From: Reclinomonas americana ATCC 50394
Taxonomy: Eukaryota
Length of the DNA stretch: 42,843 nt
Direction of reading: 5' to 3'
Assembly (NCBI GenBank): GCA_048213135.1
Contig: PS015178.1
Coordinates: 120,069 to 162,911 of the forward strand
This document shows positions 9,801-42,843 of the stretch, one piece after another. The notes under the pieces are model-generated. The model was not told the origin of the DNA, ran no database searches, and worked only from the letters and a program-made list of their open reading frames with translations. Made by a program: the position numbers and the translations under genes. Each line of letters begins with the position of its first letter. Position 1 is the stretch's first letter.

Positions 9801-10308
9801 CTGGCACAGTGGTGAACTCGTTGAAGCGTTGAAACGTCTGCATGCACTTAATGAGCCATTGCAATCACAGCAGCAAACAACAACAACAACAACAACAACA
9901 ACAACAGAGCAACAGTGCCTTTTGCAGTCTTTGCAAGCAGCGAATGAGATCGGCCCTGCACAAGAACACACACAGTCAATCACACTCTGTCGTGCTGAAC
10001 AAGCCGCGTGCACATGAGCGTGCGAGGGAGAGACGCACCACTCGCGCACTTGATCAAACAATCTGCAATCACATCATCAATGTGAGAAATGCATGCGCAC
10101 GCCTGGATCACACGACACACTCACCGCAACACCGCCTGCATCTCATCCGCGAACGGGCGATAGCGCGACTTGCGCGATTCTGCATGTGCGTGGGCGTGTG
10201 TGTGTGTGAGAGCGTGAGCAAGAACCAAAATGAACAACATGGCGCACACGCGCTCACACAGACACACACGCGTGCTCGCCACTCACCCATCTCCTCCATT
10301 GACTCCAT
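864..10308 (-). CDS. DOP1: Dopey/DOP1 family large HEAT-like trafficking protein, multi-exon (C-terminus runs into gap; one internal contig flipped)
   Basis: Putative ATG 10308. Spliced N-terminus has Dopey_N motifs '[28 protein letters not shown]', '[16 protein letters not shown]', '[11 protein letters not shown]', 'RRFFSWL'. C-terminal '[27 protein letters not shown]' matches recalled Dopey C-terminus. Internal exon boundaries not all resolved. Confidence 0.9.
3846..4694 (+). CDS. DOP1: Internal Dopey segment on an inverted contig
   Basis: '[27 protein letters not shown]...[14 protein letters not shown]' resembles the Dopey mid/C region (recalled human 'HWIGLITSTLPYMG...LLEGITAIIHYCLL'). 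It reads on + while flanking Dopey exons read on -. Bounded by N gaps. Confidence 0.7.
9877..9905. repeat. (AAC)n microsatellite in a Dopey intron
   Basis: Direct reading of tandem aac units. Confidence 0.9.
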
Positions 10309-10408
10309 CGCTAACAATGCGCACACGTGTGTGTGCGTGTGTGTGTATCGATGGCAATCACAGCTGAGCGCGGATCGACTAAAATCTTCACTTGCCAGTA
10401 CTGTCACA

Positions 10409-11308
10409 ATGATCGAGAGGAGATTACACGTGCTTGTTCTCTCGTGTTTGTTGCTTGTGTGTGTGTGCGATGCGGGGAGAGCGCCACTGACATACCACCC
10501 CGACACGCGCTTGTACACGGTCGATGTGGTGTTTGGAATCAGTGATGACACGGGTGACTTGGCGTCGCCTCCACTGCCCATGGTGTTTGACACTGGTGAG
10601 TAAGCAAAGAGTGTGTGTGAGTGAGTGTGAGCAAGAGCAAGTGACAGATGCCTTATGTGTCGCAGGGAGCTACTGGACGATGGCGATCTGTTGCTCGGCG
10701 ACTGACACCTCGGCGGGATGCTCGTCGCCGCGCGTGTTGCCTCTGTGCAGTTGAGTGTCTCACACTGTGCCACGTACACTCATGGCATCCTCACTCGGTT
10801 GTCCGCAGGCGATCGACCACTGAAGGTGTCAGAGTTGCGCATTGATGGCACCACGGTGTCGATGCGTGGCGAGTACTACTCGAGGTACACGCTGGCGGTG
10901 CCTGGGGCGCTGCCAAACAAGAGCGACAAGACGTACGATCTGTTTGCTGGCACCCCGCAGGGCGATTCGTCGCCGTTCTACTGGGGCAACACCAAGGGTC
11001 AGCTGGGCTCCGCCGGTCTCATTGTGGTGCGCGACAGCGTGGTGCAGTTTCTCGGCTTCTACCAGCTGGCTTCGCAGCAGCAGGTGACACGCTTTGCGTT
11101 GGATTTGCACGGCTCGTCGGGCGCCAGCTTCTTGACCACCGACACGGATGTGGACACGGGTGGCACGCTGTTGGCCTCGGAGCCGTACCTGGGTGGTGTG
11201 AACACGCGCAGTCATGTGTTGCGCATCTACCACCTGACTGCGTGCGGCGTGGACTTGTTCTCGTACTACGCCTCCAACTGGTTGACGCTGGTCGATACGG
11301 GCTCGCGG
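10409..11308 (+). CDS. Secreted pepsin-like (A1) aspartic protease, 3' part lost in gap
   Basis: Signal-peptide-like 'MIERRLHVLVLSCLLLVCVCDA'. Two catalytic-type motifs: 'PMVFDTG|SYW' (split by an intron) and 'LTLVDTGS'. Confidence 0.75.
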
Positions 11309-41248: not shown

Positions 41249-41349
41249 TAAAAACTTCAGGGACAACATCGCAATGTTGCTCGCACGCCGACGCCTGCAT
41301 CAGCACTCGCCCACCGACTGCATTACTCCGCTCCGCACAGCACATCGCC

Positions 41350-42843
41350 ATGTCTCACGGACACGTCAAACAGGCACGCACGCGTCTCTCCCTCCCACGC
41401 GCGCACATGTCCATCGCTCTCACACTCTCACAGGAAGGCTCTCGCGCGCCCGACGAGCTCCTCCTCAAGTTGGCCGCCTACGCCACCTCCTACAAGGTCA
41501 CCAATGCCGACACGCTGACCACGGCGCGGTATTGCCTCATTGATGCTATCGGTAATGCATGCATGCATGCATGCACGAGACACACTGATGCACACTCTCA
41601 CACACACACTTGCACGCGCACAGGATGCGGTCTGGCCGCACTCGAGTACCCGCAATGCCTGCGTCTGTTGGGCCCTGTTGTCCCAGGCACAGTGGTGCCG
41701 AATGGCGTGCATGTGCCTGGCACTGATGTTGCGTTATGTTACATTCTTTCTGTCCGTGTGTGTGCGGAAGATTAACGTGCGTGCCTGTGCGTAGTTTGAG
41801 CTGGACCCGATCACCGGCGCCTTCAACATTGGCGCCTGTGTGCGCTGGCTCGACTGGAACGACACCTTCCTTGGCAAGGAGTGGGGTCATCCGTCGGACA
41901 ACTGCGGAGCGATTCTGGCGGTCGCCGAGTACGTGTCGCGTCAGCGTATGGCTGCTGGTGCGACTATGATGGATCGAGAATGTGTGCGCGCGCGTGGCTC
42001 ACTGTGCTGTGTTGCAGGTCAGGAGCCACTGACGATGCGCGTTGTGCTCGACGCCATGGTCAAGGCGTACGAGATTCAGGTGCGCATGCAAGTGTGGTGT
42101 GTGTTTCGTGCGCGGAGACACGGGGTTTCATTGTTTGGTGTGCAGGGCCGCATCGCCATTGAGAATGCCTTCAACGGCATCGGCTTGGATCATGTCATCT
42201 TGGTGCGCATCGCCTCGACAGCAGTGGCTGCCGATTTGCTCGGTGAGAACTTGTGCATTTTACGCTCACCCGTGCCCATCCGCTCACTGTGCCCACCAAC
42301 AGGCTGCTCTCTCGAGGAGACGGTGAATGCTGTCAGTCATGCGTTCATCGACGGCGGTGCCATGCGTTGCTACCGGCACTACCCCAACACCGGCATCCGC
42401 AAGTGCTGGGCCGCCGGTGACGCCACCTCGCGTGCTGTCTTCCACGCCATCAACGCCAAGAAAGGTGAAATGATCTGGCTGCACGGCGAAGTTTTTGTAC
42501 TCTTTGCTTATTGATGGCGCGCAGGTGAAATGGGCTACGCCGCGGCGCTGAGTGTGCCACGATGGGGCTTCTACGATGTGTACATGCCAGTGCATCTGAC
42601 GCAGCCGCTCGATCACTACATCATGGACAACATTCTGTTCAAGGCCTCGTTCCCGGCCGAGTTCCACGCGCAGACGGCGGTGGAGTGCGCCTTTGCGCTG
42701 CACTCGGAGGTGGCGCCCCGCCTCGACGAGGTGCAGGAGGTGCACATTTGGACGCAGGAGTCCGCCGTGCGCATCATCGACAAGAAGGGCCCGTTGACGT
42801 TGCGTGATTGTTTATTATCCGTGATGCTTGGAGGCGACTAGCT
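41350..42843 (+). CDS. prpD: 2-methylcitrate dehydratase (PrpD/MmgE), 3' truncated
   Basis: '[14 protein letters not shown]', '[20 protein letters not shown]', 'GLDHVILV', '[22 protein letters not shown]', '[19 protein letters not shown]'. Confidence 0.95.

Follow-up and report, generated by a model that had tools for sequence, protein, structure and literature searches.

A frequent class of 5′ splice sites with the donor consensus displaced by one base in a Reclinomonas americana scaffold

The introns of a 42,843-nucleotide stretch of Reclinomonas americana ATCC 50394 (GenBank assembly GCA_048213135.1, contig PS015178.1, positions 120,069 to 162,911 of the forward strand; hereafter the window) were investigated using DNA, protein homology and the literature. 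The window was a gene-dense eukaryotic scaffold of 38,792 non-N bases, and its introns had a median length of 67 bases. Among its genes were a Dopey-like gene, the methylcrotonyl-CoA carboxylase beta chain (MCCB), a tandem pair of paralogues, a glycerol-phosphate acyltransferase-like gene, NAD synthetase and 2-methylcitrate dehydratase. A catalogue of donors (5′ splice sites) was built by hand from reading frames and homologues. It held 165 donors, 159 with GT and six with GC, and the curated models comprised 22 gene pieces with 23,498 coding bases and zero internal stops. We defined a shifted class by T at +3 and G at +6 without G at +5. This class accounted for 38 of the 165 donors and had the consensus GTTGCGT. 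Within the window, it was a major mode of splicing, as a preliminary description of this DNA had proposed.

The preliminary description had listed 26 GTTGCG, GTTTCG and GTTGAG motifs as donors. All 26 were found where, and on the strand on which, they had been reported, each after A, C or T, and all 26 acted as modelled donors in the curated stop-free catalogue. Twelve further members lay beyond that list (marked additional in Table 1). The claim that the listed introns were supported by frame or homology held to different degrees. Nine were fixed, by homologues at 9801, 13704, 31413, 31873, 37617 and 41728 and by a paralogue at 16320, 18900 and 20019. Five (29354, 30471, 35749, 16539 and 20468) were favoured by a small or non-independent margin, with 16539 and 20468 tested only against one another. 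The other twelve were placed by reading frame only; for 29489, 33874 and 42799, the next exon was lost in a gap or at the window end.

Curation in poorly conserved genes favoured familiar-looking donors, and the key counts were therefore redone on unbiased subsets. A donor-neutral parser scored coding potential, intron length and acceptor. Any GT was allowed, GC was penalised, and the intron model was trained on 25 ordinary introns minus their first 8 bases. The parse was imperfect and coincided with 103 of the 165 curated donors. It recovered 16 of the 26 listed sites, and three of the ten missed (13704, 37617 and 41728) were fixed by homology. The three motifs made up 25 of 180 GT donors in this parse, compared to 62 of 2,908 GTs on the sense strand (binomial p = 1.8e-13). 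G stood at −1 in only one of these 25 donors and in 78 of the 155 others (Fisher p = 4.5e-6). The same separation was observed in the curated catalogue, where G preceded 3/38 shifted and 108/121 other GT donors (Fisher p = 6e-21). It was also observed among the 101 GT donors on which the catalogue and the neutral parse agreed (3/27 versus 65/74, p = 7.5e-13) and among the 60 donors fixed by homology or paralogue (2/11 versus 43/49, p = 1.5e-5). The association between −1 and +3, which had been proposed for a genome-wide test, was found within the window: T occupied +3 in 37/48 donors after a non-G base and in 18/111 after G (Fisher p = 2.5e-13). On the sense strand of genes, 21 of the 22 occurrences of the 7-mer GTTGCGT were donors; the antisense strand had three occurrences. 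At the level of DNA, the shifted class was confirmed as real, far beyond chance.

Junction placement was examined using homologue profiles of 50 NAD synthetases, 50 methylcitrate dehydratases, 42 acyltransferases, 6 Dopey proteins and 50 carboxylase beta chains. In these five conserved genes, all in-frame pairs of any donor dinucleotide and an AG acceptor within 18 bases were compared; the ordinary MCCB introns 13079 and 12713 stood outside the tested set. The modelled junction ranked first for 8/10 shifted and 32/37 ordinary donors. The tandem paralogues (14.2-21.0 kb) served as an inner control and gave first rank to 7/8 shifted and 20/22 ordinary donors; this comparison left out six introns near the 5′ ends, where the two copies diverge, among them the shifted 20936. 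Intron 18900 was absent from the paralogue, which fixed its junction. These tests bear on whether the junctions lie elsewhere, at an in-frame GC three bases on, a GT five bases on or a G/TT (the slash marks the cut), or whether the extra T is a sequencing error. We regard this as very improbable. In its favour, 12 of the 26 listed sites were placed by frame only, and the GC three bases on came within 3 bits at 8852, 29354, 30471 and 35749. However, GT came first for most donors in the two tests with any dinucleotide allowed, and at 9801, 31873, 37617 and 41728 the GC fell 4.3 to 6.2 bits behind. The junction at 18900 was set by an intron-less copy, and the GTTTCG and GTTGAG members had no GC at +4. 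After a non-G base, GTTGCGT was found at 20 donors and three other places, whereas GTGCGT was found at 8 and 51 (p = 6e-10). The 480 non-G-GTG words in exons contained zero frameshifts. The extra T was thus confined to donors, and an inserted-T sequencing error was excluded.

The two classes differed in a simple way. In the shifted donors, G stood at +4 in 29 and T in 8, C at +5 in 34 and T at +7 in 30. The bases T+3, G+4, C+5, G+6 and T+7 of the shifted class were the T+2, G+3, C+4, G+5 and T+6 of the ordinary class, displaced by one base. Ordinary donors followed the pattern G/GT-N-N-G, and those after G with G at +5 (n = 97) were loose on the intron side, with G+3 in 65, C+4 in 44 and T+6 in 58, because the exon supplies G at −1. 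In the case of ordinary donors after non-G, the sequence was tight, and 8 of 13 read GTGCGT. Among the 48 non-G donors, 35 had T+3 and G+6 and 12 had G+5. From these sequences, a non-G exon end demands a near-perfect T-G-C-G-T core, which in 35 of the 48 lies one base further in. Four G-preceded donors, at 15403(-), 19143(-), 23585(+) and 37313(+), had T at +3 and lacked G at both +5 and +6; an exon-final G therefore tolerates almost any intron side.

The exon-side bases gave mixed evidence. A at −1 was enriched in the non-G shifted donors (18/35, 8.5 expected, p = 5.5e-4), and G was depleted in the shifted class (3/38 versus 12.3 expected from codon-position composition, p = 7e-4). At −2, A was found in 18/38 (7.7 expected) and C in 8 (10.6 expected), an A-richness like that of ordinary donors. 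The rule that shifted donors follow a non-G base held for all 26 listed sites. However, it was not strict in the whole class, because 14702, 19265 and 32646 followed G. The first of these read G/GTTGCGT and was fixed by the paralogue, and the other two were looser members. With 13 ordinary donors after non-G and three shifted donors after G, the earlier remark that the rule was not absolute was borne out.

Downstream of the donor, the classes were alike. The acceptor was CAG in 32/37 shifted and 94/103 ordinary introns, and a branch-like motif was found in 25/37 and 63/103, at a distance of 20 and 19 bases. The median length was 67 in both classes (p = 0.31). Phases were distributed 17/9/12 and 47/39/35 (p = 0.60). 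Five intron positions shared by the tandem paralogues had a shifted donor in at least one copy, and at four of them the two copies differed in class; in the pair 16320/20243, a synonymous difference between A and G at −1 accompanied the switch from A/GTTTCGT to G/GTGCGT. The shared 3′ ends, branch-like motif, length and phase, together with these switches, argue for one spliceosome.

Minor-spliceosome (U12-type) introns have a CCTT(A/G)A(C/T) branch motif, an RTATCCTT-type donor and a deficit of phase 0. A transformed class of such introns with its own small nuclear RNAs (snRNAs) was considered, and we find it highly unlikely. The tight 7-base intronic consensus and the dispensable G at −1 bear what we take to be a likeness to minor introns. 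However, the branch motif was found in 0/37 shifted and 0/116 ordinary introns, and the consensus GTTGCGT and the phases were those of neither a U12-type donor nor a phase-0 deficit. No class-specific 4-6-mer in the introns survived correction for the number of tests, and the similarity of the 3′ parts and the class switches likewise counted against it. A transposon-derived (Introner-like) family that carries its own donor sequence would explain the uniform 5′ end, but we find it scarcely credible. All-against-all blastn of 153 introns gave zero shifted-to-shifted matches, with body similarity confined to simple repeats. Boundary duplications were not found, as 28/37 shifted introns repeated 0 or 1 base, and paralogous introns at the same position differed in class.

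Pairing with U1 and U6 was computed from nearest-neighbour energies with unmodified uridines (no pseudouridine) and no U1 proteins, using the arm sequence of PMC4856993. On the 38 shifted donors, the standard U1 arm gave means of −0.4 kcal/mol in the normal, −0.8 in the shifted and −0.8 in the bulged register. It gave −7.2 kcal/mol on the 108 ordinary G donors and −2.5 on the ordinary non-G donors. Watson-Crick matches of the shifted donors to this arm were 4.9 in the shifted, 5.2 in the bulged and 3.2 in the normal register. In the case of U6, shifted donors matched 0.21 of the three ACA bases in the normal register and 1.82 in the +1 register, a match built in part into the class, which requires G+6; ordinary donors, unshifted, matched 1.67 to 1.85. 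Either U6 would pair one base further out, or the shifted introns would dispense with the U6 helix.

Reading by the standard U1 arm, shifted or bulged as in human, aided by U1 proteins and with no altered snRNA, was judged improbable. The geometry is that of the human shifted class, the arm finds more Watson-Crick matches in these registers than in the normal one, and species with GYGCGY donors retain a standard U1 (bioRxiv 10.1101/2022.06.08.495308). However, the mean energy was slight, and after non-G, shifted donors exceeded ordinary ones 35:13 despite one more fixed base and no better pairing (−0.9 versus −2.5). A bulge with a paired exon side predicts G at −1, and the depletion of G counts against it, although the enriched A at −2 would fit a +2/+3 bulge. 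The human mechanism as it stands, on which the preliminary description had drawn, was not supported, given a GCGU core and −0.8 kcal/mol in both registers. The other option it had named, a variant U1 or U6, would agree better with the sequences.

We favour, with moderate confidence, an altered U1 arm that reads the shifted sites one base out of register. It would act on the ordinary spliceosome, where U6 would have to allow one base of slack, and both kinds of intron start would be served by this single (major) machinery. The U1 snRNA would carry an altered 5′ arm with G at arm position 5, C at 6 and probably A at 8. It would bind the GTTGCGT 7-mer one base off the usual register, so that intron G+1 would take the usual partner of exon G−1. 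For the cut to stay before GT, the stretch from the catalytic centre to the U6 ACAGA helix would need to accommodate one extra base, either as a bulged U at +2/+3 or through a +1 register. The C at +5 and the preference for G over A at +4 (29 to 1) would point to G and C partners that are absent from the standard U1 arm and U6 ACAGA. The enrichment of A at −1 is what the +1 register predicts. Precedents for such a reading come from Entamoeba, with GUUUGU donors, and Mastigamoeba, with GUGCGC donors, in which the U1 arm has co-evolved (bioRxiv 10.1101/2022.06.08.495308). On the shifted class, a Mastigamoeba-type arm gave −4.2, and hypothetical arms derived from the donor consensus gave −5.5, or −9.6 with A at position 8. 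Only the A8 arm ranked shifted above ordinary non-G sites (−9.9 versus −5.1), which would match what the 35:13 excess needs if U1 pairing sets the ratio.

Several points weigh against the altered arm. The Rfam scan of the window gave zero matches of any kind, and thus no U1 or U6 gene. The good fit of the hypothetical arms arises by construction, since they were derived from the consensus, and is no evidence. The shifted register predicts C at −2, yet A was observed, and a U5 contact or a bulge would explain this better; U5 could likewise account for the A at −1. T at +4 in 8/38 donors is a mismatch to the proposed arm. The A8 arm pairs worse with ordinary G donors (−3.6), and a second U1 would therefore probably be needed. 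In addition, many lineages with altered donors, among them Thecamonas, Micromonas and yeasts, keep a standard U1 (bioRxiv 10.1101/2022.06.08.495308), U1 pairing energy is a poor predictor of splicing in human assays (PMC11732430), and our energies omit pseudouridine and U1 proteins. A stronger form is possible but tentative, in which two donor codes would run in parallel on one major spliceosome: a dedicated second U1 would read GTTGCGT one base out of register, U6 would pair routinely at +1, and introns would switch when the last exon base mutates. If true, this would relax the fixed five-base distance from the cut to the U6-paired G for about a quarter of introns.

Another reading, which seems rather unlikely, is that the sites are chosen by a protein or when U6 and U5 engage the donor, with U1 only marking the region. 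A variant U6, or standard U6 in the +1 register, would fix G+6 and T+7, and the known intron-side donors (NN//GURAG) would here occur in displaced form. This is consistent with the U6 ACA fitting only at +1 and with A at −2 and −1, which fits U5 loop 1. The anti-correlation of exon- and intron-side strength agrees with the U5/U6 two-class model (PMC11732430), and a non-canonical U6 register (−1) was reported for STAT3 (PMC11162779). However, standard U6 leaves C+5 (34/38) and G+4 (29/38) unexplained, C+4 occurs in only 44/97 ordinary G donors, and the Rfam scan applies to U6 as well.

Donors of the AG//GUNNN (U5 side) and NN//GURAG (U6 side) classes share with the window the anti-correlated exon and intron strength, and the 13 ordinary non-G donors (8 GTGCGT) fit the intron-side class (PMC11732430). 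However, the main non-G class here has G at +6 rather than +5 and misfits U6 in its normal register. The shifted class resembles this pattern but differs by its G at +6.

Human +1 shifted-register 5′ splice sites were reportedly described by Roca and Krainer in 2009. As in the human shifted sites, the consensus of the class here lies one base further into the intron, the cut precedes GT and G at −1 is dispensable. Unlike the human sites, whose example oligo keeps an AAGU core matching the standard U1 arm and melts at −6.5 to −7.6 (PMC4856993), the class has a GCGU core that pairs poorly with that arm. It also makes up 38/165 donors, whereas all non-canonical registers together were estimated at 1.5% of human donors (PMC11162779). 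In human, the register was shown by suppressor U1; here it is proposed from donor sequence. The class seems to work like the human shifted register but falls outside it in standard-U1 pairing and abundance. The first non-canonical U6 register was seen at a single human site, the STAT3 tandem donor, shifted −1 (PMC11162779). In both cases the U6-paired G would lie at a distance from the cut other than the usual five bases, but the window would hold dozens of such sites, at +1. As in Entamoeba and Mastigamoeba, the donor consensus cannot pair with a standard arm, and Mastigamoeba shares the C+4 G+5 core. However, these organisms have a single donor class in the normal register and a reported matching U1 arm (bioRxiv 10.1101/2022.06.08.495308), whereas the window, judged from its donor sequences, has two classes of GT donors (38 and 121) that are offset by one base. 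A tunicate paper raises a shifted register merely as a possibility. No organism with an abundant +1-shifted donor class was found in the literature searched, a scope that left out most subscription papers.

How the cut is set once the donor has passed from U1 to U5 and U6 is usually studied on rare or engineered sites. Extrapolated from 38/165 in the window, donors in the two registers, offset by one base, appear to number in the thousands across the genome. Homologous introns that switch register make U6 +1 pairing testable; in the literature consulted, no +1 case was described, next to the −1 case of PMC11162779. The system also allows one to ask whether a variant U1 can be dedicated to a particular class of introns. 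For annotation, about a quarter of the junctions here will be put in the wrong place by gene finders that were trained on a single donor consensus.

Table 1. Introns of the shifted class in the window. Additional, beyond the 26 sites of the preliminary description; neutral parse, recovered by the donor-neutral parser; frame, open reading frame; rank and margin refer to the profile or paralogue test.
Intron	Strand	Donor	Gene or related intron	Support
1898..1961	-	A/GTTGCGG	Dopey-like gene	additional; neutral parse, open frame
2714..2789	-	C/GTTGCGT		additional; neutral parse, frame
5413..5490	-	C/GTTGCGT		additional; neutral parse, frame
5645..5724	-	C/GTTTCGT		additional; neutral parse, frame
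7328..7400	-	T/GTTGCGT		additional; neutral parse, frame
7835..7900	-	C/GTTGCGT		additional; neutral parse, frame
8793..8852	-	A/GTTGCGT		additional; neutral parse; profile tie with GC three bases on, rank 2/26
9732..9801	-	A/GTTGCGC	Dopey N-terminal domain	profile rank 1/38, margin 5.3 bits; neutral parse
10750..10808	+	A/GTTGAGT		curated open frame only; missed by neutral parse
13704..13771	+	A/GTTTCGT	methylcrotonyl-CoA carboxylase beta	rank 1/26; next GT/GC choice 10.1 bits lower; a non-canonical pair within 0.5 bits
14637..14702	-	G/GTTGCGT	exception to the non-G rule	additional; paralogue rank 1/13, margin 12; neutral parse
16261..16320	-	A/GTTTCGT	paralogous intron 20243, G/GTGCGT	paralogue rank 1/13, margin 11
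16478..16539	-	C/GTTGCGT	paralogous 20468 shifted too	neutral parse; paralogue rank 1, non-independent of 20468
18080..18161	-	A/GTTTCGT		additional; neutral parse, frame; paralogue rank 5/9, uninformative
18825..18900	-	A/GTTGCGG	paralogue intron-less here	rank 1/11 against paralogue, margin 11
19199..19265	-	G/GTTTTGA	loose T+3/G+6 member	additional; paralogue rank 1/13
19951..20019	-	T/GTTGCGT	paralogous intron 16080, C/GTGCGT	paralogue rank 1/13, margin 11
20401..20468	-	C/GTTGCGT		neutral parse; paralogue rank 1, non-independent of 16539
20875..20936	-	C/GTTGCGT		curated frame only
21404..21464	+	A/GTTGAGG	Sel1-like repeat gene	neutral parse, frame; in-frame G/GTACTG 21 bases upstream
22538..22607	-	A/GTTGAGC		neutral parse, frame
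22848..22915	-	T/GTTGCGT		curated frame only
23233..23346	+	C/GTTGCGT		curated frame only
24293..24356	+	A/GTTTCGT	WWE-domain gene	curated frame only; neutral parse took GT 6 bases upstream
29354..29427	+	C/GTTGCGT	glycerol-phosphate acyltransferase-like gene	neutral parse; profile rank 1/37, margin 0.6 bits
29489..29554	+	T/GTTGCGT		neutral parse; next exon lost in gap
30471..30536	+	A/GTTGCGT		profile rank 1/25, margin 2.7 bits; neutral parse
31413..31484	+	A/GTTTCGT		profile rank 1/26, margin 7.6 bits; neutral parse
31873..31935	+	A/GTTGCGT		profile rank 1/37, margin 5.0 bits; neutral parse
32595..32646	-	G/GTTACGT	G-preceded	additional; neutral parse, frame
33874..34071	+	C/GTTGCGT	first NAD synthetase intron	curated frame only; acceptor 5 bases from gap; neutral parse took GT 5 bases on
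35689..35749	-	A/GTTGCGC		neutral parse; profile rank 3/26, first among GT/GC donors by 1.8 bits
37617..37685	+	A/GTTGCGT	NAD synthetase	profile rank 1/18, margin 4.3 bits
38821..38878	+	C/GTTGCGC		neutral parse, frame
40014..40078	+	A/GTTGCGT		additional; curated frame only
40358..40432	+	A/GTTTCGT		neutral parse, frame
41728..41794	+	T/GTTGCGT	2-methylcitrate dehydratase	rank 1/26; GC three bases on 5.4 bits lower; a non-canonical pair within 1.9 bits
42799..42805	+	C/GTTGCGT	at last exon end	position only; no acceptor inside window

Several other features of the window were observed. All six GC-AG introns read AG/GCA, at 6758(-), 9265(-), 9620(-), 9918(-), 34960(-) and 41374(+). Four lay in the Dopey-like gene, and three ranked first on the profiles. 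The Dopey-like (840-10299), carboxylase beta (11480-14151) and NAD synthetase (33804-38468) genes were split over contigs of alternating strand between N gaps. This meant that scaffold order and orientation were locally wrong.

In the case of NAD synthetase, the best of 120 matches had 84% identity. The best match of the Dopey-like gene clustered with Naegleria gruberi, at 79% over about 33 residues, a similarity too short to point to a particular group. A tblastn search of 80 metagenome loci gave a single piece for 70, and the 10 split loci were not close relatives. A Protein Data Bank (PDB) search with a 22-residue exon gave no match, and bacterial homologues were used instead. The best matches of the NAD synthetase exon 37386-37616 (+) and the methylcitrate dehydratase exon 42527-42799 (+) were largely bacterial or unnamed.

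A Pfam search of 15 single exons identified zf-UBP and WWE, and weakly Sel1/TPR, as the only domains. The genes also carry what we take to be SIR2-like, EMC5-like, CBM48-like, aspartic-protease-like and TIGR02452-like sequences, labels that Pfam did not name. The tandem paralogues (14249-20961, -) have the presumed SIR2-like motif set, and one copy has an N-terminal zf-UBP domain (Pfam). Introns 18900 and 19842 were present in one copy only. The gene at 23149-26310 (+) seems to fuse a presumably CBM48-like start, WWE domains (Pfam) and a presumably TIGR02452-like C-terminal domain. A second gene 6 kb away, at 32236-33678 (-), shares this presumed kind of C-terminal domain. Three gene pairs were head-to-head, with modelled start codons 126 to 161 bases apart (22988/23149, 28694/28848 and 33678/33804). 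Two modelled exons on the forward strand were very short, 23575-23584 (10 bases) and 31395-31412 (18 bases), and homologues supported the 18-base exon.

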